DNA of 19,072 bases from a virus (IMGVR_UViG_2663762908_000007); one strand, 5' to 3'; positions 352 to 17,984 are shown, numbered from the stretch's first letter. Notes: a model not told the origin generated them from the letters alone. Numbers and translations: made by a program.

Positions 352-509
352 TTCAGGGATTTGCACGTACGAACAAGTACACTGATATCTTCATAGCCTG
401 CAAAAGTGAGCTGGAATTCAGAAGATACCAGTCGTTCGCCTTTGGCCGCGTTGGCAGTATAGCGGCCCTTAATAAATTTACGGTTTCCCTTAGTGTTATT
501 GTGCCCCAT
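348..509 (-). CDS. small ORF, 53 aa (MGHNNTKGNRKF...), stop overlaps the start of the downstream ORF
   Basis: ATG at 509-507 preceded by AAGGA with about 6 nt spacing. Its TGA stop (350-348) overlaps the ATG at 351-349, suggesting translational coupling. Below the 60-aa cutoff of the supplied track, found by hand translation. Confidence 0.3.
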   Translation of the reverse strand: MGHNNTKGNRKFIKGRYTANAAKGERLVSSEFQLTFAGYEDISVLVRTCKSLK

Positions 510-520
510 ATAAAATCCTT

Positions 521-985
521 TTACTGGAACGCCCGAACAATATCGGAGCTGTTATATATCGAAGAACCGGTCAACTGGAGGTTGACGGTGTTTTTCAGGA
601 AATGCCCATTGCTGTCCCTGGGCGCATCGAGATCGAAACTTATGTCCTGGATAGCGACATCAATGATGTTGATCCGGCGACCAATGTTTAGCGTCACACG
701 CTCCGGGATTCGACCACCAATACTGGCATCTTTAAGTTCCGGGCTAATCATCGCTGACAATGCGGCGATAGCTCCTGAAACCTCCGTGAATGGGTCAAAC
801 AAAGCGATGAAAGTTACTGGCAGCGTGAAAGTCGGCGGTGTTCCCCCTTCCCAAACCATTAAGCTGTTCCAACGGGCCACCGACGTTGTTTCAGTACCAA
901 CCTGCGCAAAACCACTGAAAGCACCAGCAACAGACCCCATGGACATACCGGTAAACGGCGCTTCCCAATTCTGGGCCATGTTCAT
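521..985 (-). CDS. hypothetical phage-type protein, 154 aa
   Basis: ORF with ATG at 985-983 and a G-rich SD-like sequence about 6-7 nt upstream. Lies in the same minus-strand block downstream of the sheath-like gene. No motif recognised. Confidence 0.5.
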   Translation of the reverse strand: MNMAQNWEAPFTGMSMGSVAGAFSGFAQVGTETTSVARWNSLMVWEGGTPPTFTLPVTFIALFDPFTEVSGAIAALSAMISPELKDASIGGRIPERVTLNIGRRINIIDVAIQDISFDLDAPRDSNGHFLKNTVNLQLTGSSIYNSSDIVRAFQ

Positions 986-1100
986 TGCTGCCCCCTGGCT
1001 GATATATCCGGTAACCTGATACTGAGAGTTCGTTAAAGTAACTTTCAGAAATGGCGATACACCGTCAGCCTGGCTGTAAACCCCATAAGGTATAGGTGCT

Positions 1101-1130
1101 ATTCAAGTTAAAGGCCGGAGTTCTCCGGCC
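1101..1130 (-). terminator. candidate intrinsic terminator/stem-loop after the acidic-protein gene
   Basis: Perfect 8-bp GC-rich inverted repeat GGCCGGAG / CTCCGGCC (1113-1120 and 1123-1130) immediately after the stop at 1138, followed on the minus strand by TTTAACTT. The U-tract is short, so strength is uncertain. Confidence 0.4.
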
Positions 1131-1137
1131 TCCTCCT

Positions 1138-1953
1138 TTAGCCAAGGCGCTTACGGCGCAGTTTCATTGACTTTTTGCGGGCAAGTTTTGCCGCGCCGGT
1201 CTGAGCTTTTCGACGCGCTTTTTTCAGCGCCGATTTTTGAGCCGCAGTCAGACGTTTTTTACTCAGGCGTTTACGGATGAGTTTGATCTCACCGTTACGA
1301 ACAACCTTCTTAAATGCTTCAGTCAGCATTTCATCAGAAGTGCCAGCAACAACAAACGCCGCTTCCAGTTCATCACGGTCGTCGCTATCTAAACCAGCGA
1401 TAGAGGCACCAACATCAGCAGCTGCGTCGTCGTCTTCATCGTCAGCCAGTGCTTCGATCAGGTCATCATCTACACCGCATGCTGCGAGGAAGTCAGCAAC
1501 ATTTGCCCATGCTTCGTTATAGGCATCGTCCTGTTCTTCTGTAACTTCGGAGTCGTCGTCATCAGAGATACCAGCGATAGCCTGAACGAAACCATCAAGG
1601 GAGTCGAAAGTCAGATCACCGCTATCAGCCCAGGCGAAAACGGCGTCGGCCGCATCACTCAACGCATTTTGCATAGCACTTCGATTTGCAGCTTCCAGAA
1701 TCATCTGGTGCGCCTGTTCGACGGTCCATTCTTTACCGTCTTTCCCTTCCAGGATTTGCTCAGGAGCCGGGGCAGATGGAACGTTATCGTTAGTCTGTGC
1801 CGCCGGTTCCGGATTATTATTAATAACCGGATCTGTTGGCGGTTCGGCGCTTGCTCGGGCAGACTCCATCAGCTGCACAGGATCAGAGCTCAAAGCGAAA
1901 CGAGACAGTCCATTCCCCAAAAATGCCCCGGATTGAAAAAAGTTTTTGCTCAT
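1138..1953 (-). CDS. charge-bipolar protein, 271 aa: strongly acidic D/E-rich core with a very basic K/R-rich C-terminal tail of about 50 aa
   Basis: ORF with ATG at 1953-1951 and SD AAGGGA about 7 nt upstream, 9 bp after the stop of the sheath-like gene (operon-like). Composition read directly from the translation (DDDDSEVTEEQDD, DDEDDDAAAD, then KLIRKRLSKKRLTAAQKSALKKARRKAQTGAAKLARKKSMKLRRKRLG). Confidence 0.6.
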   Translation of the reverse strand: MSKNFFQSGAFLGNGLSRFALSSDPVQLMESARASAEPPTDPVINNNPEPAAQTNDNVPSAPAPEQILEGKDGKEWTVEQAHQMILEAANRSAMQNALSDAADAVFAWADSGDLTFDSLDGFVQAIAGISDDDDSEVTEEQDDAYNEAWANVADFLAACGVDDDLIEALADDEDDDAAADVGASIAGLDSDDRDELEAAFVVAGTSDEMLTEAFKKVVRNGEIKLIRKRLSKKRLTAAQKSALKKARRKAQTGAAKLARKKSMKLRRKRLG

Positions 1954-1962
1954 TGTATTCCC

Positions 1963-3552
1963 TTACTTAATAAGCAGCGGTACGCCCTGGATACGACGGG
2001 CTACGCCAGTCGGGCAGCAGGCCCAGACTACTTCCCATTTATCGAATTCCGCCTGCGTAACTTTCAGCACATACGGTTCTGTACCGTCAGCATCAGGATC
2101 ACGAGGAGCCACCAGAGCGCCGGAGGCGACAAAGCGATCTAAAAGTTTGGTCATCCCTTTAGTCAGGCCAGCCGCAGTAATACCGTCCGGGCTATGCTTC
2201 ATCTGTCGGGCTAACTGGACAAAGAAACGGCTGATTGCATTCATCAGGGATGGGACGTGCTGGAAGTGCAGATAGTTATCCTGCGTGCAGCAAGTTAAAG
2301 CATCGTCGATGATCATCTGGCCAGAGGTGCCAACAGATACTTTATTGAGACGGCCCTTGACCATTGCTTCTTCGTCCGGGGTATCTTCCGGATACAGCGG
2401 TTGAATTGACGCACGAGCAATGACGGCACGTTCTTCACCAGCCGGTGAGTAATGCCAACCGCCGACATCAGAGTTTTTCTTGACGCCACGAGCTTTCACC
2501 GCATACGCCACGCCAGACAGACCAAAGACCACACGGGATTGGGTCCATTTGTCTTTGCAGGAGAACGGGTAGTGATAGACAGAACAGCTTACATAATCGG
2601 TACCAAGTAAACCGGTATCCTCAACAGCTGGTAGTGCTTCTGCGTACGTTAATGTCGGTTTGACATCAAAGAAGCCATCAATCAGGCGATCTGCACAGAT
2701 TTTACCTAATGCGGTGATAGCCGCATTGTCATAGCAGCCCAGGCCAAGAACAGCGGTGTACATGTACGGCGCATTGTTCAGAACTTTCACCGCACGCAGG
2801 TACGTAGCGGTTGAGATTTTCGACTGATCGCCGTTGGTACCGCCAGTGAACGCCAACGATTTTTTGTTTGTTACTTTCGCTGTCGAAATCAGCTCTTCAT
2901 TAACAACCGCGCGCAAATATTTAGAACGGGCTTCCAGAGCCGTAGGCAGATAACACAAGCGGCCCATGTCATCTTTCGCTTCTTCCGCCAAAGACACAGT
3001 GTGTGTCTCCAGGGTCGTTACCACGCCGAGCGAAGTCGTCTGGGGCAGTTTTAAGAGGAAGCGTTCATTACCCGCGCTGTCCGCTGTTGCCGTTTCGATG
3101 GTTAACTCACGGGTAGGTGAAATACACGGATCACCATCATCAACGTAGATAGCAAAGGCTTCGCCACTATCAAGTTCAATTTCAGAACCGTATGGCAACG
3201 CACTGTAAGCCGGTTCGCCTGATTCATCGAACATAATAATCGGGAACTTCGCATCATCCGGAACAGCGCGAACAACGTAACCAGACGTTTGCTGAATAGC
3301 TTCGTATACATGGCGAATTGGTTCGAACTGTGAGCCGGAAGACGGCTTCAGCGGTTCGCCGAGAACATCTTCGTAATTGGACTCAGTAACCGCAAGAACA
3401 GTAAACGGCTTGCCACGCGCAAATACGCCAATACCAGCCCACAAGCTGCTATTTAATGCAACACCGGTAGATAACGTCGCATCGGCATTGATCGGGCTAA
3501 CCGCGACGCCGGATGCATTACCTAATGACTGTTGAATTGAATATTGAGACAT
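1963..3552 (-). CDS. phage structural protein, 529 aa, possibly contractile tail sheath (P1 gp22-like)
   Basis: Long ORF with SD AGGGA upstream of the ATG at 3552. The size (about 58 kDa) and a W-x-x-S-P-A-G segment (GGWHYSPAGEE) resemble the conserved W-K-A-P-A-N/G region of myovirus sheath proteins. In P1 the head and tail genes 21-22-23 lie next to par. Assignment is from memory, not a search. Confidence 0.55.
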   Translation of the reverse strand: MSQYSIQQSLGNASGVAVSPINADATLSTGVALNSSLWAGIGVFARGKPFTVLAVTESNYEDVLGEPLKPSSGSQFEPIRHVYEAIQQTSGYVVRAVPDDAKFPIIMFDESGEPAYSALPYGSEIELDSGEAFAIYVDDGDPCISPTRELTIETATADSAGNERFLLKLPQTTSLGVVTTLETHTVSLAEEAKDDMGRLCYLPTALEARSKYLRAVVNEELISTAKVTNKKSLAFTGGTNGDQSKISTATYLRAVKVLNNAPYMYTAVLGLGCYDNAAITALGKICADRLIDGFFDVKPTLTYAEALPAVEDTGLLGTDYVSCSVYHYPFSCKDKWTQSRVVFGLSGVAYAVKARGVKKNSDVGGWHYSPAGEERAVIARASIQPLYPEDTPDEEAMVKGRLNKVSVGTSGQMIIDDALTCCTQDNYLHFQHVPSLMNAISRFFVQLARQMKHSPDGITAAGLTKGMTKLLDRFVASGALVAPRDPDADGTEPYVLKVTQAEFDKWEVVWACCPTGVARRIQGVPLLIK

Positions 3553-3567
3553 AACTTTCCCTGTTAT

Positions 3568-3586
3568 GCGCCCCGCACGGGGGCGC
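3568..3586 (-). other. intergenic GC-rich stem-loop between the 205-aa ORF and the sheath-like gene
   Basis: GCGCCCC-gcacg-GGGGCGC, a 7-bp perfect stem, 26 bp after the stop at 3613 and just upstream of the RBS of the 529-aa gene. No clear U-tract, so it may be a processing or attenuation element rather than a terminator. Confidence 0.35.
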
Positions 3587-3612
3587 TATGTTAAACGGAG
3601 AACTTCCCCTGA

Positions 3613-4230
3613 TTACTCAGAGTCACCGGCATCAATCGTGTCGCCGCTTATGAAGTTAAGCCCGCCTTTTTTGGCCATTGTCAGCGTTACACGAGTGAAG
3701 TAATCAGCGCCGTTGCGTGGGTGCATATCGTTGATAGCCGAACCCCACAGCGTGCTACGGTTGACCAGCGCCGGAGTGGTCGGATGCTGGAACGGGATGG
3801 CCGGGACAGCATCACCAGTCACGAAGCCTGCTTTACCCGGATTTTCATCACGGACGTAGCACAGCACATCCATCGAGCTGAACTGAATGTTCTCAGTCGT
3901 TAAGTTCTTACAAATACCAGCAGGTACTTCGTACACTTTCACGTTACCGAACAGGGTACCGATGTAGTGAACATACGGAGTCTGGATATAGTCTTCGGCT
4001 GGCTGGAAGAAATCCTTCGGCAACTGTTTGAAGAAAGATGCTGCATCAGCACCAGCAAACATCCCCATCGCACCAGAAGATTTAACGCGCTCAATAATGT
4101 CGCGATATACAGTCTGGAATTTGCCACGAATGATGGTTGCCCATACATCAAAGGACTGGTTAACCGGCAGAGCGATGTCAAAGGTGTCGGTCGCAAGAGT
4201 GCGCCAGATCATGATGCGAAGACGCAGCAT
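3613..4230 (-). CDS. 205-aa ORF, probably the C-terminal part of a major head protein (P1 gp23-like); in the same frame as the upstream 360-aa ORF, separated only by a TAA
   Basis: ATG at 4230-4228 has AGGA only 1 nt upstream, a poor RBS. The frame is continuous with ORF 4237-5319 except for the TAA at 4239-4237 (...EYLSH * QD MLRLR...). Confidence 0.5.
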   Translation of the reverse strand: MLRLRIMIWRTLATDTFDIALPVNQSFDVWATIIRGKFQTVYRDIIERVKSSGAMGMFAGADAASFFKQLPKDFFQPAEDYIQTPYVHYIGTLFGNVKVYEVPAGICKNLTTENIQFSSMDVLCYVRDENPGKAGFVTGDAVPAIPFQHPTTPALVNRSTLWGSAINDMHPRNGADYFTRVTLTMAKKGGLNFISGDTIDAGDSE

Positions 4231-4236
4231 ATCCTG

Positions 4237-5319
4237 TTAATGAGACAGGTATTCCTTCAGGGTGCGGAACTGTAGGGAACCCAGGTCTAGACCAAATTCA
4301 CGCTGTGCTTCATACGCCGCCTGTACCGTGTGCTCAGCCGCGATAACGAACTGACTTGGGAACAGGGTGTATTTCTTCATTTCGTGGTTGATCAGCGGGA
4401 TCAGCTCAGGAGCGGCTTCAATATTGATTTCCGTCTCAATTGCGATCTCAGTGCCTTTATCCGGCGCTTTGGAGAACGACAGGGCAATCTGACCAATGTT
4501 GTAGTTCAGAGAGCAGGTAACAGTGATTTGCTCACCAGCAGCATTAGTAAACGAGTGAAGTAGGCTGCCGGAACCGTTATCAACAACAGACTTAATACGG
4601 TTAACGTAGATGTTAGTACGACCTTTTCGGATTGGCACATTCTGGCCTTCGAAGTCTTCCATCTTGAAGGTTGCGGTTTTGCTGGTGCCATCGGAGCTTG
4701 CCACCAGCACATAGCGGCGACGTAACTGGCTGTACACACCGACGGATTGCATGTCCAGAACATCACCAGCAGCATAAGAACCAAAAGAGGAACCTGCCAC
4801 GTTAAAGACTTCATAGATGTCGGACTGGTCACGCGTAACCGGAATGAAGGTACACGCATCAGCGGTAGCTGCCCCCAACTGAACAGGCAGGATCATCGCG
4901 AGGAATAAAGGCAGACGCATAACACCGTCAGAAACGCTCATCATCTCTGCTGCGACGGATTCCAGCATCGCTTTATTAGTGGCATCCATGCTATTGCGGG
5001 TGGACTCAATCAGGCAGTTTTCCAGCGTCTGGTGGCAGGAGGTCAGAATTTCCGAACGCGGCATAGATTTATGTGCTGCGGCGTAGTCAGCCAGTGCACT
5101 TGCCCACGCTGTAGCGATTTGAGCGGTGGCATTATCAGAGATACCCGCAAAAATCGGGTCTTTACGTGCAGCTTCAAGGATAGATGCGGCACGCGCGGCA
5201 TCATCTTTAATGAATTGGTTATCAGTACCGAACTGCGCAGTGCTTGCCCAGCCAAGCACAGCTTTAGAGCGTTTTGCGATATCTGCAATACGATTCTGGT
5301 ATTCGCGTAAGTTACTCAA
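4237..5319 (-). CDS. 360-aa ORF, probably the N-terminal part of a major head protein (P1 gp23-like) with an Ala-rich helical N-terminal region
   Basis: TTG start at 5319-5317 with SD AAGGAAGAG about 5 nt upstream. It is the first gene downstream of parS, where P1 carries gene 23. Combined with ORF 3613-4230 it gives about 568 codons, matching a roughly 62 kDa head precursor. Confidence 0.55.
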   Translation of the reverse strand: MSNLREYQNRIADIAKRSKAVLGWASTAQFGTDNQFIKDDAARAASILEAARKDPIFAGISDNATAQIATAWASALADYAAAHKSMPRSEILTSCHQTLENCLIESTRNSMDATNKAMLESVAAEMMSVSDGVMRLPLFLAMILPVQLGAATADACTFIPVTRDQSDIYEVFNVAGSSFGSYAAGDVLDMQSVGVYSQLRRRYVLVASSDGTSKTATFKMEDFEGQNVPIRKGRTNIYVNRIKSVVDNGSGSLLHSFTNAAGEQITVTCSLNYNIGQIALSFSKAPDKGTEIAIETEINIEAAPELIPLINHEMKKYTLFPSQFVIAAEHTVQAAYEAQREFGLDLGSLQFRTLKEYLSH

Positions 5320-5344
5320 TTTACTCTTCCTTAAACATAAGGCA

Positions 5345-5530
5345 CTTGTGTGAATCCCTTTTCGGAAGAGATTTTATTGAAAGTCACTTGTTGACTTTCT
5401 CGCGAAAAGTAATTTTTTAAATTTTTTGTGCGGGGAAGTGGACGGTGAATGCAGGCGTTAAATCGTGGGAATTTCAGTCTGAAATTCTCCTAAAAAACAC
5501 ATGCAAATCATAATGTTAGCAATGAAATTG
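5345..5530. promoter_or_regulatory. parS: candidate parS centromere (ParB binding site) downstream of parB
   Basis: Located where P1 parS lies, directly after parB. Contains the heptamer palindrome GAATTTCAG-t-CTGAAATTC (5469-5487), further TGAAAT/GTGAAT-like heptamers (5350, 5446, 5523), an AT-rich tract (5411-5428) that could be the IHF site, and a second palindrome GAAAGTCA-cttgt-TGACTTTC (5380-5400). Confidence 0.45.
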
Positions 5531-5583
5531 GTGCAGGACATTTTAGGAAGGGGAGGGGCTAACACCACCTCCCACCAGCGGGA

Positions 5584-6549
5584 TTATTCCCCAGCAGACA
5601 TTTTCCCAATGATTTTTTTTATTGCTTCGTCAATTTCAGTTTGCACTTCAGACGGGAGTCTAGAGAACTCGTAGGCGACAACCCGTTTTTTCGGATCGGA
5701 CTTCTTTCGAGCATATTGGCGACGGTCAGAGAAGTCTCGCAGCTTCTCAACCACCACAGATTTAACCGGCGCGGGCTTCAGGCTTTTGCTTTCCGCTTGG
5801 AAGATAGCCAGTATCTTCGCTTTATCCTCTTGCGCGCCCTCAGTCTCTGCAATTCGTTCGCGCACCGTATCAACCAGCTCTTCAATAGGCACGCTTTTAG
5901 CGTTGGCATCCTCGGAGATCTGGAGCAGTAACTGGTAATCTGGCAGGGCGAGATCGCTGGCAACAGGGAAGACAGCAATCATCTCATCCGGCACCGCTGC
6001 CGCCTGGAACGCGCGCGTAACTTTAGCCTTTGAAATGTTCTCAGCGCGGGCGATCTCTTCTTTGGTCATGCTCTTACCATACATAACCTCGAAGCGTTTA
6101 CCCAGTTCGCGCAGGGTGTGTTCGCGGGCTGTCTGGATATCAATGGCCAGCTGGCGTGCATCCGCCAGGCTGATCTCATCTTTCGTCACCAGAATCTCAA
6201 ATTTCGTTTCATTGAAGATACACGCAGCGCGGCGACGTGATCCGTCCAATACCTCAATGCGCTCCCCAACCATACGACCAATAGCCGGGAAGAACTGTTG
6301 CAATTTAATGGTGCGGGAAATATCGCTTACCGACTCAGGGGTGAGCAGAGACTGATCGCGGCCGTTAACTGCCGGGTCAACGAACGTGCGCGACTCAATC
6401 TCACCACTCAGCACAACGGTAAGCAAAAATTTAGCCTGGCGGCCAGATTTTAGGGTAAAGGTTTTGGTGCCTTCACTGCCTTCAAGCATGCGAGCAAACT
6501 CGGAGCTATTCTTGCCCAGCACTCGTCCACGGGAAACTATTTTTTTCAT
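5584..6549 (-). CDS. parB: partition protein ParB (type Ia, P1 family), 321 aa
   Basis: The translation carries the ParB signature EVLDGSRRR and an HTH region, and aligns by eye with P1 ParB but is clearly divergent. It overlaps parA by 4 bp (ATGA). Confidence 0.9.
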   Translation of the reverse strand: MKKIVSRGRVLGKNSSEFARMLEGSEGTKTFTLKSGRQAKFLLTVVLSGEIESRTFVDPAVNGRDQSLLTPESVSDISRTIKLQQFFPAIGRMVGERIEVLDGSRRRAACIFNETKFEILVTKDEISLADARQLAIDIQTAREHTLRELGKRFEVMYGKSMTKEEIARAENISKAKVTRAFQAAAVPDEMIAVFPVASDLALPDYQLLLQISEDANAKSVPIEELVDTVRERIAETEGAQEDKAKILAIFQAESKSLKPAPVKSVVVEKLRDFSDRRQYARKKSDPKKRVVAYEFSRLPSEVQTEIDEAIKKIIGKMSAGE

Positions 6550-7757
6550 GCCGCCTCACCCCTAACAAACTCAATTCGATCAAACACAGCCTTAGTGAAA
6601 CGCTCGGCCTCGGTTCGTGCCTTCTTCAGCGCCTCTGCACTGCCTGGATACGATTGCGGGTTGGCACTGATTACGGTGTCGAAAGACTCGCCGCATCGCT
6701 CAAATCCATCCAGACGAGGCAGAGAAGAGTCCAGAATGTTGCTGGCGTAAACCTCACGCGCAAGGCTGTGTGATGTCTCGTGATCGCGCTTGCCGGTCAT
6801 CTTCGACATAAAACCAATGCTGGCGCTTAAACGCGGTTCTACGCCTTCCTCCTCCAGTTGCTCCAGCATTTCTGGCAGACGGGTGAGATATTTCAGTGTT
6901 GAGTGGAAGTCAACCTGGGCTGGTGGGGTAGGGGTAAGCAGCAAATCGCTGGCCGCCAGACCGTTGAGCAGGAACGGATCCAGGTGTGGGCCGGTATCAA
7001 TAAAGATAAAGTCATAATCATCCGCAACACGATCAATGATATTGCGTCGAAGGATTTCGTACTGATTTTGTCCGGGAAGATGCTCTTCAACCAGCTCTTT
7101 CCATTGGCTGGCAACAAAGCCATCGTCGATAGAGGCTGGAATCACGTCTACGCCAGGAACGATGGTCGGACGAATCACCTCTTTGCGTAGCGTCTCCGCG
7201 TCCAGGTCGTTCAGCATCGCCTGCGCGGCGGTTTCCAGGATGGAACCAATACTGTGAGTATGGTCGAGGAACATTGTGCTGGATGCCTGAGGGTCAAGGT
7301 CAATTACCAGAATGCGCAGATCGTGACGCAGTAAATCCTGATGCACACGCAGAGCGTGCGCCAACGTGACTGTGGAAACCGTTTTGGATACGCCACCCTT
7401 CAGGTTTACGACAAAAATAACGTAAGGCGATTTGTGAATGTCGCGATATTTTGGGATCTTACGGTGGGCATAGATATCAATGACGTTCTGGATGGTCAGC
7501 GCGTACTGTTCAACGTTACCGACCTGTTTCTTGTTGAACTGGTACCCATTATCTTCCATCTCTTTGATGGCCTGCTCCACAATGCGGCGGCTCAGCTTCG
7601 GCAACTTTGCCACAGCGTTACGAGTGAACGTCTGATAATACTCGGTCTGATTGAACTCTTTGCGCTGCTCTTCAATATCCTGACTCATGGCCTTAAGTAA
7701 TGCGCTTGCACGAAGAGCTATGGTGCCGACACCGCCGTAATCGCGTTTCATCATCAT
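6546..7757 (-). CDS. parA: partition ATPase ParA (type Ia, with N-terminal regulatory extension), 403 aa
   Basis: Deviant Walker A NLKGGVSKTVST, and the motifs ILVIDLDPQ and RLDGFERCGESFDTVISANP, typical of the P1 ParA family. Sits upstream of parB. Confidence 0.92.
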   Translation of the reverse strand: MMMKRDYGGVGTIALRASALLKAMSQDIEEQRKEFNQTEYYQTFTRNAVAKLPKLSRRIVEQAIKEMEDNGYQFNKKQVGNVEQYALTIQNVIDIYAHRKIPKYRDIHKSPYVIFVVNLKGGVSKTVSTVTLAHALRVHQDLLRHDLRILVIDLDPQASSTMFLDHTHSIGSILETAAQAMLNDLDAETLRKEVIRPTIVPGVDVIPASIDDGFVASQWKELVEEHLPGQNQYEILRRNIIDRVADDYDFIFIDTGPHLDPFLLNGLAASDLLLTPTPPAQVDFHSTLKYLTRLPEMLEQLEEEGVEPRLSASIGFMSKMTGKRDHETSHSLAREVYASNILDSSLPRLDGFERCGESFDTVISANPQSYPGSAEALKKARTEAERFTKAVFDRIEFVRGEAA

Positions 7758-7866
7758 CTCCTTATCATTTCGTATGAGTGAATTGTACGTTTGATTCTGC
7801 TACGTGCAACTTTCTTTGATTCGTGCGTCAATTATTGCACGTAAAGAAATGGCGATGAGGCTATTA
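7758..7866 (-). promoter_or_regulatory. parAB promoter/operator region (inferred)
   Basis: Intergenic region upstream of parA with the inverted repeat ACGTGCAA (7802-7809) / TTGCACGT (7835-7842). Type Ia ParA proteins autoregulate at an operator overlapping their promoter. Confidence 0.4.
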
Positions 7867-8119
7867 GATGTGTGCTGGAGGGATGATGCAGGACCAGAAT
7901 GTGCGATAGAGGGAAGTCGCATTGAATTATGTGCTGTGGAGGGATCGCTGGTATCAAATATGTGTGCTGGAGGGAAAGGCAGAGAATTACATGTGCACTG
8001 GAGGGAAAAACGGATGGACAGATGTGTGCTGGAGGGAAAGTCTGGGCAAACTGCGGGGCGTCCCCCTCCAGCGCACATCAAAAACAGGAAATTGGACAAG
8101 CCTTCCCTCCAGCACACAC
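7867..8119. repeat. incA: incA-like iteron array downstream of repA (about 8 copies of the P1-type 19-bp iteron, 6 in one orientation and 2 inverted)
   Basis: Copies of GATGTGTGCTGGAGGGAAA or close variants at 7867, 7898 (degenerate), 7928, 7960, 7991 and 8021, and inverted copies (CCCTCCAGC[A/G]CACAT) at 8061 and 8101. The last abuts the repA stop codon. Confidence 0.85.
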
Positions 8120-8980
8120 TTATTCTGGGAGTTTCAGCTTTGGATTGCGAGAATGGACGATTACAAAACTTTCCCGGCCTTTCTTCTCAATTGAACAGTC
8201 GAGATAGCCGATTGTTTTAAGCTGTTCTATCGCTTTCTTAATGATACGGTTTTGCTCGCCAACAGCTGACTGCAAAGCCAGGCGCTCACGGATTCGGGCG
8301 AAAGATAGCGGCAACGGATTCTGCGGAAGGCTTTCGATGAAAGTGTAAATGGCTTGTGCAGCTTCTTTCTTCGGAAGGGCACGCAAGGCGTGGTGTTGCA
8401 ACAGAACGCGATAATCAAGCTGGAACAGCTCCCACAGCTTCGAATCAGCCTCCAGTTCTATCAGATCAAGGTCAGCATCAAAACGCCCGACCTTCAGCAG
8501 ACCAGTCTGATAGCCGCCTTTAGCATCTTTTCCGCGCTTAAAAGCGATACCCTTGTTACGCAAGCGTCCAAGTGATTCATGAATGGTTAAACGCAGTTTC
8601 GCATCCAGACGTTTTGAGGGGAAACCACAGGCTTTAGCGAATTCCTGAAACGATAACTGGATGGTGTTTGAGGACAAGCCGTATTTGCTGAACGCGTAGA
8701 TGACACCGATCCACGTTTTGAAATCAGTATCCATATCGAGTCGAGGACCGGTGATTTTAATATCATCGTAACCCTCGGCTTTAGCTATCTCCAGCTGGGA
8801 AAACGCTTTGGTGGCATCAATCTCTTTACTTTCTCCTTTGCTCTTTGATGGCTTCGGAACGAATACCCCCAAGCGCATCAACGCTACAGGCTGCACAGTG
8901 TTGTTTGAATTAACTGTTAGTTCTTTTGCCTTACTTTCAATGTCTGCGTAAAGAATATCGGATATAAATGATTGATTCAT
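8120..8980 (-). CDS. repA: iteron-binding replication initiator RepA (P1 R-replicon type), 286 aa
   Basis: An ORF of the P1 RepA length, flanked upstream by five direct iterons and downstream by the iteron array, which is the diagnostic incC-repA-incA arrangement. Confidence 0.92.
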   Translation of the reverse strand: MNQSFISDILYADIESKAKELTVNSNNTVQPVALMRLGVFVPKPSKSKGESKEIDATKAFSQLEIAKAEGYDDIKITGPRLDMDTDFKTWIGVIYAFSKYGLSSNTIQLSFQEFAKACGFPSKRLDAKLRLTIHESLGRLRNKGIAFKRGKDAKGGYQTGLLKVGRFDADLDLIELEADSKLWELFQLDYRVLLQHHALRALPKKEAAQAIYTFIESLPQNPLPLSFARIRERLALQSAVGEQNRIIKKAIEQLKTIGYLDCSIEKKGRESFVIVHSRNPKLKLPE

Positions 8981-9036
8981 ATTACTTTTTCCGAATTATG
9001 TGGATAGTTTTTATAAGTGATGATAACTACCCAGGC

Positions 9037-9140
9037 TTTCCCGTCAGCACACATCCTATATCCCGCCAGCACACATTAGCAACCCGTCAGCACACATTTT
9101 TATCCCTCCAGCACACATCGGTTTCCCTCCAGCACACATC
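9037..9140. repeat. incC: incC-like origin iterons (5 direct copies, about 21-bp spacing) containing the repA promoter region
   Basis: CC[C/G][T/C]CAGCACACAT copies at 9037, 9061, 9081, 9101 and 9122, all in the same orientation, immediately upstream of the repA start. Confidence 0.85.
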
Positions 9141-9178
9141 GCGATACACTTCTAAGCCAGACGTGGCGCGGCCTGCAA

Positions 9179-9257
9179 CGATCAGGGATCTATATGGATC
9201 TAATTGGGATCTGTATGGACCTAATTATTGGATCTACTCAGTGGATAATGTGGATAA
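9179..9257. other. oriR core elements: cluster of five GATC (Dam) sites plus two tandem DnaA boxes
   Basis: GATC at 9180, 9187, 9197, 9208 and 9231 within GGATCT-type heptamer repeats. TGTGGATAA (9249-9257) is a perfect DnaA box and AGTGGATAA (9240-9248) has one mismatch. A further TGTGGATAg lies at 8999-9007 between incC and repA. This matches the known P1 oriR architecture. Confidence 0.7.
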
Positions 9258-9260
9258 GTG

Positions 9261-9284
9261 AAAAACCGGCCAACAAAGCCGGTT
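9261..9284 (-). terminator. intrinsic terminator after the truncated gene, insulating oriR
   Basis: On the minus strand AACCGGC-tttgttg-GCCGGTT followed by TTT, a 7-bp stem with a U-run, 15 bp after the stop at 9301-9299. Confidence 0.5.
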
Positions 9285-9298
9285 GGAAGGAAGCTGTA

Positions 9299-9658
9299 TT
9301 ATTCTATGCTTTCGATGAGAAGACCATGTTCATAACATTTAAGCTCATCGCCTTCGTACAGGAATTGGTATCCAATACCACCATCTTCATGGACATTAGG
9401 GAATAACTCATAACTCACTGAAGAGCAAATCACACCAATACAGCGATCAACGCCTTCTCGTTCTTCAGTGCTGAAAAAATCCTCTTCAGTAAGAACATGA
9501 GTACATTGCTCATCAGCATAGGTCGGAAATACATGCTCAATGCAATCCGGGTGTTTTAAACCAAGCTGATCGGCAAGCTCGAAAGCACGACGGTATTGTT
9601 CAGATCCTGGCTTGCCAACAGTGATTTGCTCAATTTTGTAGATTGAAGTCGCTTTGTT
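9299..9658 (-). pseudogene. 5'-truncated ORF (119 codons, no start) interrupted by the IS911-like element
   Basis: Frame open from the IS boundary at 9658 to the TAA at 9301-9299 (...VGKPGSEQYRRAFELADQLGLKHPDCIEHVFPTYADEQC...YEHGLLIESIE). No initiation codon is present because the frame runs into the IS left end at 9659. Absent from the supplied track. Confidence 0.5.
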
Positions 9659-9976
9659 TGAAGTGGCACACTGAATTTGGCCACCTGAACAGAGGTGATA
9701 TGCTCACCTCAGAACAACACAGGTGCTCCAATGAAAAAAAGAAATTTCAGCGCAGAGTTTAAACGCGAATCCGCTCAACTGGTTGTTGACCAGAAATATA
9801 CGGTGGCAGATGCCGCCAAAGCTATGGATGTTGGCCTTTCCACAGTGACAAGATGGGTCAAACAACTGCGTGATGAGCGTCAGGGCAAAACACCAAAAGC
9901 CTCTCCGATAACACCAGAACAAATCGAAATACGTGAGCTGAGGAAAAAGCTACAACGCATTGAAATGGAGAATGAA
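9659..9976 (+). mobile_element. IS911-like (IS3 family) left end: terminal inverted repeat plus the 5' part of orfA
   Basis: Starts with TGAAGTGGCACACTGAATTTGG, the IS3-family terminal TG...CA structure and the IS911 end as I recall it. orfA ([21 protein letters not shown]...) follows at 9731. Identity to IS911 ends at 9976. Confidence 0.8.
9731..9976 (+). CDS. IS3-family transposase OrfA (IS911 InsN-like), 3' end replaced by foreign sequence
   Basis: The translation [82 protein letters not shown] is an HTH plus leucine-zipper OrfA. The track ORF begins 12 codons early at 9695, and its tail ([13 protein letters not shown]) is not OrfA. Confidence 0.75.
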
Positions 9977-10070: not shown

Positions 10071-10099
10071 NNNNNNNNNNTTTCGGCCCCGGTTCTCTT

Positions 10100-10726
10100 T
10101 TATTTCTGCTTCGTTAACGTGTCATAACTGGTCATCAAATTACGATAATCAGGAATGTGGTTAGAGAACAACGTCGCCAGTCCTTCAATATCATTACGCC
10201 AGTCGCGATGCAGCTCGCACGCCACGCCGAACCATGTCATCAATTGCGCACCAGCTTGCGACAAGCGATCCCATGCCGAATGCCGGGTAATTTCATTAAA
10301 GGTCCCTGACGCGTCAGTCACGACAAAGACGTCAAACCCTTCTTCAATGGCTGAAAGCGCCGGGAATGCCACGCAAACTTCGGTTACCACACCGGCAATA
10401 ATTAACTGTTTTTTACCTGTCGCTTTGACAGCTTTTACAAAATCTTCGTTATCCCAGGCGTTAATATTTCCCGGGCGAGCAATGTAAGGTGTATCGGGGA
10501 ATTGTGCTTTCAGTTCTGGAACTAATGGGCCGTTAGGACCGGTTTCAAAACTGGTGGTAAGAATAGTTGGTAAGTTGAAATACTTAGCCAGGTCACCCAG
10601 CGCCAGCACGTTATTTTTAAACTTATCGGGTTCGATATCCCGTACAAGGGAAAGTAAACCAGCCTGGTGATCAACAAGCAAAACGGCAGCATCATTTTTA
10701 TCAAGACGAACATACGGTTTGGTCAT
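10100..10726 (-). CDS. ycaC: isochorismatase-family hydrolase YcaC, 208 aa
   Basis: The translation matches E. coli YcaC as I recall it (MTKPYVRLDKNDAAVLLVDHQAGL...), including the cysteine of the catalytic triad in the VTEVCV region. Confidence 0.9.
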   Translation of the reverse strand: MTKPYVRLDKNDAAVLLVDHQAGLLSLVRDIEPDKFKNNVLALGDLAKYFNLPTILTTSFETGPNGPLVPELKAQFPDTPYIARPGNINAWDNEDFVKAVKATGKKQLIIAGVVTEVCVAFPALSAIEEGFDVFVVTDASGTFNEITRHSAWDRLSQAGAQLMTWFGVACELHRDWRNDIEGLATLFSNHIPDYRNLMTSYDTLTKQK

Positions 10727-11039
10727 CCTCTTCTCCTTTCGAGAGTCAGTGGTACGTCTGAAATCGATCAGACGCGATGCATTGCTCTGAAAGCATAGAC
10801 GGGAAATATGAGTTTGCTGTGACCATGAAATTTTTCGACTGAACGAAGCGTATGAAATTTGTGTTAGTTCAATAAAAACAATCAGATGAGACTAATCATC
10901 TCTTCAGCATTAGCGTTATGAATGAGTAATATAAATCGATAATACCGCCGCTGGGATATCGCGTATTTTCACCCATTGACAATGTTTTTGGCGGTGGCAT
11001 GATGCGCATGAAATTTGAACTTCCTCACGGTTTTAATTC

Positions 11040-12188
11040 ATGTCCACGTATACCCAGCCTGTCATGCTTTTGCTGTCTGGCCTGCTTTTGTTGACTCTGG
11101 CGATTGCGGTGTTAAATACACTCGTGCCGCTTTGGCTCGCCCAGGAACACATGTCCACATGGCAGGTAGGCGTTGTCAGCTCATCCTATTTTACCGGCAA
11201 CCTTGTCGGTACATTGCTGACAGGGTATGTCATTAAGCGCATTGGCTTTAACCGCAGCTATTATCTGGCCTCCTTCATTTTTGCCGCTGGCTGTGCCGGC
11301 CTTGGCCTGATGATTGGATTCTGGAGCTGGTTGGCTTGGCGTTTTGTCGCGGGCGTCGGCTGTGCCATGATTTGGGTGGTTGTTGAGAGCGCGCTGATGT
11401 GCAGTGGGACGTCACGTAACCGTGGGCGTTTGCTTGCTGCGTATATGATGGTTTATTACGTGGGAACGTTTTTAGGCCAGTTACTGGTCAGCAAAGTTTC
11501 AACCGAGCTGATGTCCGTATTGCCGTGGGTTACAGGTTTGACGTTGGCAGGGATCTTACCGCTGTTGTTTACGCGTGTGCTGAATCAGCAGGCTGAAAAC
11601 CATGATTCGACGTCAATTACGTCAATGCTAAAACTCCGTCAGGCGCGGCTTGGCGTGAATGGCTGCATTATCTCAGGAATCGTTCTGGGATCTCTATATG
11701 GCCTGATGCCGCTGTACCTCAATCACAAAGGGGTGAGCAATGCCAGCATTGGTTTCTGGATGGCGGTACTGGTCAGTGCGGGTATCCTTGGACAATGGCC
11801 GATTGGACGTCTGGCGGATAAGTTTGGTCGACTGCTGGTGTTGCGTGTTCAGGTCTTTGTCGTCATTCTCGGCAGTATCGCGATGCTTAGCCAGGCGGCG
11901 ATGGCCCCAGCGTTATTCATCCTCGGTGCCGCTGGCTTTACGCTATATCCGGTGGCGATGGCATGGGCTTGCGAGAAAGTTGAACATCATCAACTGGTGG
12001 CGATGAACCAGGCCTTACTGTTGAGCTATACTGTGGGAAGTCTGCTTGGCCCGTCATTTACCGCTATGCTAATGCAGAATTTCTCCGATAATTTATTGTT
12101 TATCATGATCGCCAGCGTATCGTTTATCTATTTGCTGATGCTGCTGCGCAACGCCGGTCATACGCCGAAACCCGTTGCTCACGTGTAA
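11040..12188 (+). CDS. ycaD: MFS transporter YcaD, 382 aa
   Basis: A 12-TM-like hydrophobic profile, matching E. coli YcaD. Divergent from ycaC as on the E. coli chromosome. Confidence 0.9.
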
Positions 12189-12397
12189 ATGAATTCAAGC
12201 AGAGTGTGAACTTACTGTTTCACACTCTGCTTTTTTGTTTCTTCTATCTGACTTGCTTTATTCCAAATTTTATTCGTTTAAAAATAAAATGTGCAGCAGG
12301 TTATAATTTTGCATTTCGCTATTTCCGCACTTCTTATTTGCCGCGCATAATCCCTCGTTTTACAGATGCCCCTTTAATTTTGGCGAAGGATTTGTCT

Positions 12398-13828
12398 ATG
12401 GCTGGGAATGTTCAGGAAAAACAGTTGCGATGGTACAACATTGCGCTGATGTCTTTTATCACTGTCTGGGGTTTTGGCAACGTTGTTAATAACTATGCCA
12501 ACCAGGGGCTGGTGGTTGTTTTTTCATGGGTGTTTATCTTTGCACTCTATTTCACACCTTATGCGCTAATTGTTGGTCAGTTAGGCTCGACCTTCAAAGA
12601 TGGGAAGGGCGGGGTCAGTACCTGGATTAAACACACGATGGGACCCGGACTGGCTTATCTCGCCGCGTGGACCTACTGGGTGGTGCATATTCCCTATCTG
12701 GCACAAAAACCCCAGGCAATTCTGATTGCGCTCGGTTGGGCGATGAAAGGCGACGGTTCGCTAATCAAAGAATATTCAGTCGTAGCGTTACAGGGGTTAA
12801 CGCTGGTGCTGTTTATCTTCTTTATGTGGGTTGCTTCACGCGGTATGAAATCGCTGAAAATCGTCGGTTCTGTGGCAGGGATTGCTATGTTTGTTATGTC
12901 GCTCCTGTATGTGGCGATGGCGGTAACCGCGCCTGCAATTACTGAAGTGCATATTGCGACCACAAACATTACCTGGGAAACGTTCATTCCTCATATCGAC
13001 TTTACCTACATTACCACTATTTCAATGCTGGTTTTCGCGGTTGGCGGAGCAGAGAAGATTTCTCCTTACGTTAATCAAACGCGCAACCCAGGAAAAGAAT
13101 TTCCAAAAGGGATGTTATGCCTGGCGGTGATGGTTGCGGTTTGTGCCATTCTGGGCTCGCTGGCGATGGGGATGATGTTTGATTCGCGTAATATCCCGGA
13201 TGACTTAATGACCAACGGTCAGTATTACGCCTTTCAGAAGCTGGGCGAGTATTACAACATGGGTAATACTTTAATGGTGATTTACGCCATTGCGAATACC
13301 CTGGGACAAGTAGCGGCGCTGGTATTCTCGATTGATGCCCCGCTTAAAGTGCTATTAGGTGATGCTGACAGCAAATATATTCCAGCCAGTTTATGTCGTA
13401 CCAACGCTTCTGGTACGCCCGTTAATGGCTATTTTCTGACCCTGGTACTGGTGGCGATTCTGATTATGCTGCCGACTCTCGGCATTGGTGATATGAACAA
13501 TCTCTATAAATGGCTGTTGAACCTTAATTCGGTAGTGATGCCGCTGCGTTATTTATGGGTATTTGTTGCATTTATTGCAGTCGTTCGCTTGGCGCAGAAA
13601 TATAAACCAGAATATGTCTTTATTCGTAATAAGCCTCTGGCAATGACCGTCGGGATTTGGTGTTTTGCCTTTACCGCCTTTGCCTGTTTGACGGGGATCT
13701 TCCCGAAAATGGAAGCCTTCACTGCAGAGTGGACCTTCCAGTTGGCGCTGAATGTTGCAACGCCGTTTGTGCTGGTAGGATTAGGACTGATATTCCCGCT
13801 GCTGGCGCGTAAAGCGAATAGTAAATAA
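12398..13828 (+). CDS. ycaM: APC-family amino-acid transporter YcaM, 476 aa
   Basis: The track ORF starts at 12206, but the conserved protein starts at the ATG at 12398 (MAGNVQEKQLRWYNIALMSF...). A polytopic membrane protein. Confidence 0.88.
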   Translation: MAGNVQEKQLRWYNIALMSFITVWGFGNVVNNYANQGLVVVFSWVFIFALYFTPYALIVGQLGSTFKDGKGGVSTWIKHTMGPGLAYLAAWTYWVVHIPYLAQKPQAILIALGWAMKGDGSLIKEYSVVALQGLTLVLFIFFMWVASRGMKSLKIVGSVAGIAMFVMSLLYVAMAVTAPAITEVHIATTNITWETFIPHIDFTYITTISMLVFAVGGAEKISPYVNQTRNPGKEFPKGMLCLAVMVAVCAILGSLAMGMMFDSRNIPDDLMTNGQYYAFQKLGEYYNMGNTLMVIYAIANTLGQVAALVFSIDAPLKVLLGDADSKYIPASLCRTNASGTPVNGYFLTLVLVAILIMLPTLGIGDMNNLYKWLLNLNSVVMPLRYLWVFVAFIAVVRLAQKYKPEYVFIRNKPLAMTVGIWCFAFTAFACLTGIFPKMEAFTAEWTFQLALNVATPFVLVGLGLIFPLLARKANSK

Positions 13829-14069
13829 TTATTGTGGTCGGTGACGCTGACTCTGGCAGATCTGACCCGTTTTTACATAATCGAGAAATGCGCGCAAGCC
13901 GCAGGACATATACTGGCGGTTTGGATAATAGATCTGGAAGCCTGGACGCTCTGTGCTCCAGTCTTCCAGTACACATTCTAAACGACCAGTATCAAGGTAC
14001 TCCTTGATCTGTTCATAGAGCAGATACCCGATACCAGCACCCATCAAAACGGCCTCCAGTTCAGCATCA
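13829..14069 (-). pseudogene. ycaN: 3' remnant (about 80 codons) of the LysR-type regulator gene ycaN, truncated at an IS1 terminus
   Basis: The translation (...LEAVLMGAGIGYLLYEQIKEYLDTGRLECVLEDWSTERPGFQIYYPNRQY...) is a LysR substrate-binding-domain C-terminus. The frame runs directly into the IS1 end at 14070. The gene neighbours ycaM in E. coli. Confidence 0.7.
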
Positions 14070-14134
14070 GGTGATGCTGCCAACTTACTGATTTAGTGTA
14101 TGATGGTGTTTTTGAGGTGCTCCAGTGGCTTCTG
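14070..14134 (+). mobile_element. IS1 terminal inverted-repeat end (contig ends inside IS1)
   Basis: GGTGATGCTGCCAACTTACTGATTTAGTGTATGATGGTGTTTTTGAGGTGCTCCAGTGGCTTCTG is the canonical IS1 terminus. Confidence 0.85.
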
Positions 14135-14144
14135 NNNNNNNNNN

Positions 14145-14277
14145 AGTCGCGGATGAATATGACCAGCCGACGTCCGATATCACGAAGGATAAATGCAGCA
14201 AATGCCTGAGCGGCTGTAAGTTTCGCAATAACGTCGGCAACTTTGGCGGCTTCCTTTCCATTAACAAACTTTCGCAG
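14145..14277 (+). CDS. L: lambdoid tail-tip protein L-like C-terminal fragment (internal to a 133-bp contig)
   Basis: The only open frame gives VADEYDQPTSDITKDKCSKCLSGCKFRNNVGNFGGFLSINKLSQ, a cysteine cluster consistent with the Fe-S-binding C-terminus of lambda gpL. Assignment is from memory only. Confidence 0.45.
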
Positions 14278-14320
14278 NNNNNNNNNNTCCTGAATGATTA
14301 AAGCAGCATAATCCCGCAAG

Positions 14321-14396
14321 GGGTCGTTAGCTCAGTTGGTAGAGCAGTTGACTTTTAATCAATTGGTCGCAGGTTCGAATCCTGCACGACCCACCA
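14321..14396 (+). tRNA. tRNA-Lys (anticodon UUU), complete with CCA
   Basis: GGGTCGTTAGCTCAGTTGGTAGAGCAGTTGACTTTTAATCAATTGGTCGCAGGTTCGAATCCTGCACGACCCACCA is identical to the E. coli tRNA-Lys(UUU) as I recall it. The anticodon loop is CTTTTAA. Confidence 0.95.
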
Positions 14397-14542
14397 GTTT
14401 TAACATCAAACTCAGATGTTAAGCGTGAAGGATAACGTTACGCCAGCAACGGCCCGTAGGGCGAGCGAAGCGAGTCATCCTGCACGAGCCACCAATTTTA
14501 AAGATTGGTTCCGAGTAGAAATCTTTCAGGTAACACCCATAT

Positions 14543-14607
14543 GGGTCGTTAGCTCAGTTGGTAGAGCAGTTGACTTTTAATCAATTGGTCGCAGGTTCGA
14601 ATCCTGC
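14543..14607 (+). tRNA. second tRNA-Lys (UUU) copy, 3' end cut by the N run
   Basis: Identical to the first copy over its first 65 nt and ends at the gap at 14608. The tandem arrangement matches the E. coli lysT-type tRNA operon. Confidence 0.85.
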
Positions 14608-14617
14608 NNNNNNNNNN

Positions 14618-14733
14618 CATCATAGATGCCGCCGTTCATCGCCATCTGCACCTGACCCTGACTATTAATATCCGCCAGCAGAGCATGTAACGTTCCCCAC
14701 GCTTCGCCATTGGCTTTTTGCCAGTACATTTTC
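14618..14733 (-). CDS. unassigned coding fragment, probably prophage-derived
   Basis: Only one of six frames is open across the whole 116-bp contig (KMYWQKANGEAWGTLHALLADINSQGQVQMAMNGGIYD). No confident family assignment. Confidence 0.3.
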
Positions 14734-14743
14734 NNNNNNNNNN

Positions 14744-14971
14744 TGACTGCTCCTGCTCACCGGTCCGGAACACCACCGTGACGCCGGATATATTGGTATT
14801 CCCCTCACTGTCCAGCACCGGCGTACTGTTCAGCAGCACGCTTTTTAATCCGTCCACCGGACCTTCAACCGGCCCTTCGCTGATGGCATCGATCACACTC
14901 AGCAGCTGCGTGGACTTCAGGTTGTCCTTCGCTTCGCGCGGGGTATGCCCCTTACTGCTGCCTTTACCCAT
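14744..14971 (-). CDS. J: lambdoid central tail fibre / host-specificity protein J, N-terminal 76 codons
   Basis: MGKGSSKGHTPREAKDNLKSTQLLSVIDAISEGPVEGPVDGLKSVLLNSTPVLDSEGNTNISGVTVVFRTGEQEQ matches the lambda J N-terminus nearly residue for residue. SD GAGGA lies upstream. Confidence 0.8.
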
Positions 14972-15249
14972 TCCTCACGCTNNNNNNNNNNTATTAACAG
15001 AGACCGTAGCCCGACGGGGAACTCCTTCTGCGAGAGTGTGCGGGAATAATCAAAAACGATGCACACCGGGTTTTTACCGCGTTTATGGTTCGCGGGTTTG
15101 TCCCTCATGCTCGCCAGTCCTGTGCGGGGGTGGAAGAAACAGGACACTTACACAGATTCTTGTGGGCACGATGCTATGCCTTTCTGGATTATCCCGATGC
15201 CATTCATGCAAGGCGTTGTATCAGACGTTCGTCAGAGCTGTCAGGCTGA

Positions 15250-15468
15250 CGGGTCCTCCCGGTGGGGTGGCCTGCCACGGGGCGGGAGCGTCGCGGGTTT
15301 TCGCTATTTATGAAAATTTTCCGGTTTAAGGCGTTTCCGTTCTTCTTCGCCGTAACTTACTGTTTTTATTTAAAACACCCCCTGAAAAGAAAGGAAACGA
15401 CAGGTGCTGAAAACAGGCCTTTTGGCCTCTGTCGTTTCCTTTCTCTGTTTTTGTCCGTGGAATGAACA
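15250..15468 (+). other. cos: lambdoid cos region (cosQ, cosN, cosB) upstream of nu1
   Basis: ACGGGGCGGGAGCGTCGCGGGTTTTCGCTATTTATGAAAATTTTCCGGTTTAAGGCGTTTCCGTTCTTCTTCG... is collinear with the lambda left end, but the 12-nt cohesive-end segment reads GGGCGGGAGCGT here versus GGGCGGCGACCT in lambda as I recall it. Confidence 0.7.
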
Positions 15469-15677
15469 ATGGAAGTCAACAAAAAGCAGCTGGCTGACAT
15501 TTTCGGTGCGAGTATCCGTACCATTCAGAACTGGCAGGAGCAGGGAATGCCCGTTCTGCGAGGCGGTGGCAAGGGTAATGAGGTGCTTTATGACTCTGCC
15601 GCCGCCATAAAATGGTATGCCGAAAGGGATGCTGAAATTGAGAACGAAAAGCTGCGCCGGGAAGTTGAAGAACTGCG
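15469..15677 (+). CDS. nu1: terminase small subunit Nu1, N-terminal fragment
   Basis: MEVNKKQLADIFGASIRTIQNWQEQGMPVLRGGGKGNEVLYDSAAAIKWYAERDAEIENEKLRREVEEL matches lambda Nu1 (winged HTH). Cut by the gap at 15678. Confidence 0.85.
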
Positions 15678-15754
15678 NNNNNNNNNNCGTTCGTGTCCGT
15701 AAAACTGGCGTAATCATGGCCCTTCGGGGCCATTTTCTCTCTGTGGAGGAGTCC

Positions 15755-16124
15755 ATGACGAAAGATGAACTGATTGCCCGTCTTCAGGTGCTGGGTGAGC
15801 AACTGAACCGTGATGTCAGCCTGACGGGGACGAAAGAAGAACTGGCACTCCGTGTGGCAGAGCTGGAAGAGGAGCTTGATGACACGGATGACGCTGCCGG
15901 TCAGGACACATCTGTCAGCCCGGAAAATGCGCTGACCGGACATGAAAATGAGGTTGTATCAGCGCAGCCGGATACCGTGATTGATACGGCTGATCTGGTC
16001 ACGGTTGTGGCACTGGTGACGCTGCATACTGATGCACTTCACGCCACGCGGGATGAGGCTGTGGCATTTGTGCTGCCGGGAACGGCGTTTCGTGTCTCTG
16101 CCGGTGTGGCAGCCGAAATGACAG
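15755..16124 (+). CDS. FI: lambdoid DNA-packaging protein FI, near-complete (3' cut by gap)
   Basis: MTKDELIARLQVLGEQLNRDVSLTGTKEELALRVAELEEELDD... matches lambda gpFI. SD GGAGGA at 15745-15750. Confidence 0.8.
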
Positions 16125-16134
16125 NNNNNNNNNN

Positions 16135-16874
16135 ATGGCACATGGCCTGTCTATAGCTAATTCCGAAGTCAGGACGTTAACCGCCGATACCGATAGCGGG
16201 AAAGATGCAGCGGCAGCACTTGCCGCGCGACTGCTGCAAGCCTCGCGCGAATCTGCCGGAAATACTTATCTTACACATAAAGGTTTCCCGGAACATATTT
16301 GCCATGAGCTGACTTCAGCTCATAAAACCGGTGGGGTGATGTTCCGCCCCGGTGATTTGATCGTCCCGCTCTATAACGCTGACGGGGAGCTGGTGAATAT
16401 TCAGCTTATCAGTGGCAATGGTAGCAAGTGTTTTCTTAAAGGAGGTCAGGTTAAGGAGGCCTATCATCTTATAGAAGGGGGCGGGAGTTCAGTAAGAAGA
16501 ATGTGGATTACGGAAGGCTACGCCACGGCGCTTACCATTCATCATCTGACTGGAGAAGCCGTCATGGTGGCATTTTCGGCGGTCAACTTTCTTTCTCTGG
16601 CCAGCGTTGCCCATAACAAGTATCCGGGGTATCAGCTAATTATTGCAGCGGACCGAGATCTGAATAGTTCAGGCCAGAACAGGGCTGAAGCTGCTGCAAA
16701 AGCGTGTCAGTGTGACATTGTGCTGCCACCGGTTTTTGGTGACTGGAATGATGCGCTTGCCCATTACGGAGAGGAATCCACCCGGAAGGCAATTCTTGAG
16801 GCTTTGAGGCCACATAACGCCAGTCCTTTCGACACGATGAGTGAAGCAGAATTCACAGCGATGAGTGTCAGCGA
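16135..16874 (+). CDS. TOPRIM-domain primase-like protein fragment (satellite-phage or integrative-element type), both ends cut by gaps
   Basis: An open frame across the entire contig with a TOPRIM-like core (MWITEGYATALTIHHLTGEAVMVAFSAVNF ... LIIAADRDLNSSGQNRAEAAAK). Lambda itself has no primase, so this likely comes from a different element. Confidence 0.5.
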
Positions 16875-16884
16875 NNNNNNNNNN

Positions 16885-17359: not shown

Positions 17360-17369
17360 NNNNNNNNNN

Positions 17370-17550: not shown

Positions 17551-17560
17551 NNNNNNNNNN

Positions 17561-17974: not shown

Positions 17975-17984
17975 NNNNNNNNNN

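Follow-up and report, generated by a model that had tools for sequence, protein, structure and literature searches.

The stretch of DNA analysed here (hereafter, the window; 19,072 bases) carries an R replicon of the P1/P7 family, i.e., the replicon type that defines IncY, and, judged by sequence, all replicon features looked for were present in their expected form with the exception of the number of iterons in incA. Very probably, this IncY replicon resides on a plasmid of P7-like phage-plasmid ancestry that has lost the phage and now carries eight incA iterons as the outcome of a 31-bp deletion. The replicon itself is ordinary and already known: identical sequences are present in public databases and its replication biology is textbook knowledge.

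The window comprises 14 draft contigs separated by 13 runs of 10 N and represents more than one molecule. The replicon is located on the largest of them, contig 1 (1-10070), beyond whose end 10 N follow; contig 2 (10081-14134) spans 4 kb, and the remaining twelve contigs measure between 116 and 877 bp each. The contigs are joined by 10-N runs, and features should not be read across the joins (10071-19072). On contig 1, homology to P1 covered positions 1-5486 (bplB, pmgG, genes 21, 22 and 23, and the edge of parS) and 7864-9658 (incA to upfA), and the gene order was that of P1 (bplB, pmgG, 21, 22, 23, parS-parB-parA, incA, repA, oriR, upfA), with 97-99% identity. A BLAST search against the whole P1 genome detected no P1-like DNA in the other contigs of the window except for an IS1 end. 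The predicted products of contig 2 are a YcaC-type cysteine hydrolase, an MFS transporter of the PRK03633 family and a YjeM/GadC-like amino-acid transporter, and the contig closes with an IS1 terminus (14068-14134); its appearance is that of cargo or chromosomal DNA with no relation to P1. Part of the short-contig stretch at 14145-18185 showed approximately 95-97% identity to lambda-like prophage tail genes (tape measure, tail proteins V, L, Z and T), with matches spanning about 12% of the query, and this stretch probably consists of repeated prophage sequence left unresolved by the assembler.

The preliminary description of this DNA had proposed a P1-type R replicon and a comparison with the P1 oriR/incA sequence. 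When positions 7700-9400 were compared by megablast with phage records, they showed 99.0% identity to P7 (AF503408) and 97.2% to P1 (NC_005856), and the P1 and P7 records annotate incA, repA, incC, oriR, the Dam sites and the DnaA site under the match. The assignment was thus borne out, with a RepA protein identical to that of the reference phages.

Iterons were searched for with the consensus GATGTGTGCTGGAGGGAAA, allowing up to 3 mismatches, and 200 dinucleotide-preserving shuffles served as a control. This yielded 10 matches, all of them inside 7867-9140, against 0 expected from the 200 shuffles, and a looser core pattern added two further degenerate incA copies at 7898 and 7928. In line with the preliminary description, which had placed five direct 19-bp iterons upstream of repA, incC (9037-9140, minus strand) consists of five such copies, starting at 9037, 9059, 9080, 9101 and 9122 with a spacing of 21-22 bp. 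They lie on the repA strand and align base for base with the annotated P1 copies 10-14; in particular, the P1 annotation contains the degenerate copy at 9080 in identical form, as copy 12.

The origin, oriR (9037-9278, minus strand), was delimited by alignment to the 242-bp rep_origin feature of P1, and it reaches approximately position 9278, i.e., 21 bp past the end coordinate of the preliminary description. Alignment of the origin to P1 and P7 was gapless, with a handful of substitutions. The five GATC sites and the two tandem DnaA boxes noted previously were both recovered. The former, at 9180, 9187, 9197, 9208 and 9231 (9180-9234, unstranded), are situated in the A+T-rich origin repeat region, and all five are conserved, each aligning with one of the Dam sites 1-5 annotated for P1 and P7. 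Five sites in 55 bp compare with 0.19 predicted from the window-wide rate (Poisson probability of five or more, about 2e-6 per 55-bp span). The DnaA boxes, TTATCCACT at 9240-9248 and TTATCCACA at 9249-9257, both on the minus strand, lie at the outer end of oriR, where the P1 and P7 records annotate a DnaA protein_bind feature. Since the DnaA-box pattern was not enriched across the window (11 found, 15 expected), the evidence for these boxes consists in their tandem arrangement and in the match to the annotated P1/P7 site. Another DnaA-box-like site with one mismatch, CTATCCACA (8999-9007, minus strand), lies between incC and the start of repA and has conserved counterparts in both P1 and P7. 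At 9264-9284 (minus strand), directly downstream of upfA, a G+C-rich hairpin precedes a run of T residues in the manner of an intrinsic terminator; this element falls within the interval annotated as oriR in P1 and adjoins the DnaA boxes.

The repA gene (8120-8980, minus strand) is a 286-codon open reading frame encoding a 286-amino-acid Rep_3 initiator with WH1-WH2 domains. The protein is 100% identical to P1 and P7 RepA, with 0 amino-acid differences. It scored 25.7 bits against Pfam Rep3_N, above the cut-off of 22.4, and 20.5 bits against Pfam Rep3_C, slightly under the cut-off of 21.1; no NCBIfam family was matched, whereas Pfam did match. Alignment to the PrepA annotation of P1 positioned the repA promoter within incC, with a -10 element TAGGAT at 9053-9058 and a -35 element TTGCTA at 9077-9082. 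A generic promoter scan gave a sole match, running from 9047 to 9020, which differs from the published PrepA, and one match is below the 2.5 expected from shuffles; the promoter was therefore placed from the P1 annotation. Plus-strand open reading frames over incA and oriR (e.g., 7804-8220 and 8968-9261) were discarded as by-products of the iterons, their translations being iteron-encoded repeats.

Downstream of repA, incA (7867-8120, unstranded) contains eight 19-bp RepA iterons in 254 bp, compared with nine in 285 bp in P1 and P7. The preliminary description had counted about eight iterons in mixed orientation, reaching the repA stop codon, and the number is exactly eight: six on the plus strand and two on the minus strand, the last one ending at 8120. 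Iterons 1-6 (7867-8039, plus strand; starts at 7867, 7898, 7928, 7959, 7990 and 8021, with a spacing of 30-31 bp) are inverted relative to those of incC and identical to copies 1-6 of P7, as judged from its protein_bind features. Iteron 7 (8061-8079, minus strand; GATGTGCGCTGGAGGGGGA) has the incC orientation and is identical to copy 7 of both P1 and P7. The eighth (8102-8120, minus strand; AGTGTGTGCTGGAGGGAAG) is a hybrid, which combines the core of copy 9 with the outer base and flank of copy 8, and, as in P1, its end at 8120 coincides with the first base of the stop codon of repA. With eight copies found where nine were looked for, and with the stop-codon overlap retained, incA is present as a variant rather than absent.

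The reduced count had been noted before, together with one degenerate copy. The number held, and its source is a deletion instead of degeneracy: relative to P7 and two P1 records, 31 bp are missing (alignment columns 356-386, gapped only in the window), and this deletion, which fuses iterons 8 and 9, is the sole structural difference from the P1/P7 replicon. The junction (8103-8107, unstranded) lies within TTCCC, a run common to both of these iterons. The deletion does not alter the spacing of the last iterons (40 and 41 bp), 41 bp being the distance from iteron 7 to iteron 8. A loss of precisely 31 bp would result if iterons 8 and 9, direct repeats 31 bp apart, had undergone unequal crossover or replication slippage.

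As the source assembly is a fragmented draft and the deletion falls between direct repeats, the gap might alternatively reflect a collapse of neighbouring iterons during assembly, with nine copies in the true incA. We regard this as extremely improbable in view of the distribution of the junction, which was searched for with a 40-nt query across the deletion, designed so that 9-iteron alleles cannot seed a 28-mer. The same junction was present in 9 of 5426 complete E. coli genomes, in every case on plasmids of 35-88 kb and never on a chromosome, and in 4 plasmids of PLSDB. Furthermore, a 1541-bp replicon query (7760-9300) was 100% identical in other plasmids (CP088401, CP148376 and KY887590), and iterons 8 and 9 have only short exact runs in common, which makes a k-mer collapse unlikely. 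An assembly artefact was rejected on account of the recurrence of the junction across the complete-genome collection and PLSDB; the 8-iteron allele is real and rare. The repA gene was found in 358 of the 5426 complete E. coli genomes, so that the allele with eight iterons accounts for about 2.5% of its carriers (9/358).

The same survey bears on the physical location of the replicon. It might be a silent chromosomal remnant that does not replicate autonomously: 11 of the 364 repA-matching places in complete E. coli genomes are on chromosomes, e.g., in NCTC11129, and P1 relatives integrated in chromosomes have been reported (PMC10879196). However, the 8-iteron junction was chromosomal in none of the nine complete genomes that carry it, and the closest match over the 10070 nt of contig 1 is a circular plasmid, which leaves this possibility very improbable. 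The NCTC11129 chromosome record (NZ_LR134222.1, 4,719,141-4,733,585) contains a 9-iteron copy of the P1/P7 replicon, adjoined by Dyp-peroxidase and formate-dehydrogenase genes, and this copy reflects either the integration of an IncY plasmid or a mis-join. The replicon in the window is likely to be extrachromosomal, because every public copy of the 8-iteron junction is on a plasmid (9/9 E. coli genomes; 4 in PLSDB), the physical context in the source genome being deduced from these relatives.

At lower coordinates, the replicon adjoins a par operon (5584-7757, minus strand) that comprises parA (6546-7757, minus strand; 403 amino acids, Pfam ParA HTH_54/AAA_31) and parB (5584-6549, minus strand; 321 amino acids, Pfam ParB) and that is of the P7 type rather than the P1 type. 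In particular, megablast of positions 5487-7863 (the parS side, parB, parA and the par promoter region) revealed no homology to P1, whereas P7 matched throughout. From the sequence type of this module, P7 and not P1 partition specificity would be expected.

On the other side of the origin, upfA is present as a remnant (9299-9676, minus strand) with an open frame and its native start missing, and P1/P7 homology ends at 9658. From 9659 to the contig end at 10070, an IS3-family-like transposase fragment (unstranded) truncates upfA at the place after which mlp and ppfA would be expected. In the left part of contig 1, gene 23 (3613-5319, minus strand), annotated as the major capsid protein in P1 (NC_005856) and encoding a product 99% identical to the P1 protein, was observed to contain an in-frame stop at codon 362, and the baseplate gene bplB (1-509, minus strand) to be frameshifted, with a tblastn frame switch at residue 50. 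The nonsense codon and the frameshift could in principle be sequencing errors; a close plasmid relative from E. coli CH425 has an intact gene 23, and its bplB is likewise annotated as frameshifted.

These neighbouring genes are relevant to the question of whether contig 1 is part of an intact, inducible P1/P7-like prophage maintained as a plasmid. The presence of the genes from bplB to upfA in P1 order at 97-99% identity would agree with such a phage-plasmid, as would the fact that most public records with this repA are plasmids as large as P1 (90-100 kb). Yet the only phage genes in the window are bplB to gene 23 and upfA, and these bear the frameshift, the nonsense codon and the IS truncation at the point where mlp and ppfA should come next; moreover, the examined relatives with the 31-bp deletion all lack the phage, and the other contigs of the window do not match P1 beyond the IS1 end. 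We thus consider an intact phage-plasmid improbable. The preliminary description had taken the first contig for part of an autonomously replicating prophage-plasmid; the plasmid half of that view is likely to be right, given that the public 8-iteron copies are all plasmids, while the prophage half is probably wrong for this contig, in view of the decayed phage genes and the phage-less relatives; a separate P1 may nevertheless be present elsewhere in the source genome, beyond the window.

The closest relative over the entire contig is plasmid unnamed2 of E. coli CH425, which is circular and 78,339 bp long; all 10070 nt align at 99.76% identity, with only about 23 differences in total (21 mismatches, 2 small gaps). 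Gene 23 differs between the two, as it is interrupted by the stop codon only in the window copy. In a local BLAST of the CH425 plasmid against the whole P1 genome, only the contig-1 segment and IS1 matched, and its full annotation contained no phage genes beyond that segment. It carries a class 1 integron with dfrA14, as well as qnrS1, blaTEM-1, tet(A), strAB and sul2, and its other content includes IS elements, a heat-resistance locus, the fec operon and gadC.

Besides the CH425 plasmid, the 8-iteron junction was identified in pF16EC0456-1 (CP088401), pZ1323HEC0108-3 (NZ_CP148376), CP099107 and pEc9 (KY887590). Two of these are circular and typed as IncY only, namely CP088401 (51 kb, non-mobilizable) and CP148376 (88.6 kb, mobilizable), whereas pEc9 is an IncC-IncY cointegrate. 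Both pF16EC0456-1 (51 kb) and pZ1323HEC0108-3 (88.6 kb, with blaCTX-M-15) hold less P1 DNA than the CH425 plasmid. All examined carriers of the allele are IncY resistance or cargo plasmids in which P1/P7 DNA amounts to only about 5-10 kb and phage genes are otherwise lacking. Relatives possessing both the 31-bp deletion and the upfA::IS junction are 99.8-100% identical, and the upfA::IS junction was found in one piece in only three PLSDB plasmids, all of them with eight iterons; its confinement to 8-iteron plasmids indicates that the deletion and the truncation mark a single lineage. Shared cargo was observed in this lineage (the CH425 plasmid and pZ1323HEC0108-3), comprising qnrS1, blaTEM-1, tet(A), sul2, strAB and dfrA14 as well as a Dyp-peroxidase/encapsulin pair and an rpoH gene borne on the plasmid; of the two, pZ1323HEC0108-3 also has blaCTX-M-15. 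Pakistan and South Korea are the countries of isolation. Repeated decay of P1-like phage-plasmids into plain plasmids, some of them typed as IncY, has been described (PMC10879196), and E. coli commonly harbours rearranged P1-like elements that carry resistance cargo (PMC6906374).

With regard to replication, knowledge of P1, transferred here by sequence identity, predicts that RepA monomers would bind the five incC iterons in oriR, and that host DnaA at the tandem boxes, together with Dam methylation of the five GATC sites, would allow the A+T-rich repeats to open and theta replication to start. As the repA promoter lies inside incC, RepA bound there would repress its own synthesis. On the same basis, the incA iterons are expected to titrate RepA and to pair with the origin iterons through RepA (handcuffing), which would keep the copy number near one per chromosome.

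In P1, deletion of the whole incA raises the copy number of mini-P1 about eightfold. Single iterons reportedly have graded effects, a result ascribed to Pal, Mason and Chattoraj in 1986, and no quantitative data on partial incA deletions were found in the readable literature. We infer that the loss of one iteron of nine slightly weakens negative control, with a small rise in copy number. Indirect support that the 8-iteron replicon remains functional comes from two circular plasmids, of 51 kb and 88.6 kb, in which an identical copy is the only replicon that was typed. As a general principle, iterons downstream of rep genes control copy number via titration and handcuffing (PMC12361487).

The allele is confined to phage-less plasmids with an identical replicon, from isolates from South Korea, Pakistan and other sources. 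It might represent an adaptive relaxation of copy-number control that became fixed after a P7-like phage-plasmid had shed its phage genes and turned into an IncY resistance plasmid, but we hold this to be rather unlikely; were it true, selection would have acted on a raised dosage of resistance cargo or on altered incompatibility toward resident 9-iteron P1-like elements. The replicon matters mainly for annotation: it shows that contig 1 (1-10070) is an IncY plasmid backbone, and it should not be taken as a sign of an inducible P1 prophage. The lineage to which this backbone belongs elsewhere bears qnrS1, blaTEM-1, tet(A), sul2, strAB and dfrA14, and sometimes blaCTX-M-15. In addition, the 31-bp incA deletion in combination with the upfA::IS junction provides a handy sequence marker of this IncY resistance-plasmid lineage.

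Among known systems, the window element most resembles P7 (AF503408 / NC_050152), with which it has in common identical RepA, incA iterons 1-7, five Dam sites and two DnaA boxes, five incC iterons with a single base change in one copy (copy 13), and a P7-type par operon with a 403-amino-acid ParA. It differs from P7 in having eight instead of nine incA iterons, through the 31-bp deletion, in a few point substitutions in the origin spacers, and in the loss of the phage context. With P1 (NC_005856; oriR 62688-62929, incA 61487-61771), whose R replicon is the model for iteron handcuffing control, it shares the architecture, 97.2% identity from incA to upfA and the identical RepA, and its last remaining iteron carries the core of P1 copy 9. 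In contrast to P1, incA is one iteron shorter, and the par region and the parA-incA spacer are of the P7 type, without a megablast match to P1. RepFIA of the F plasmid (RepE, ori2 iterons, incC iterons) and other Rep_3 iteron replicons follow the same logic (PMC12361487), with a Rep_3 initiator, origin iterons that extend over the rep promoter and an additional, copy-controlling set of iterons downstream of rep, whereas their initiator sequence, iteron sequences and incompatibility group are different.
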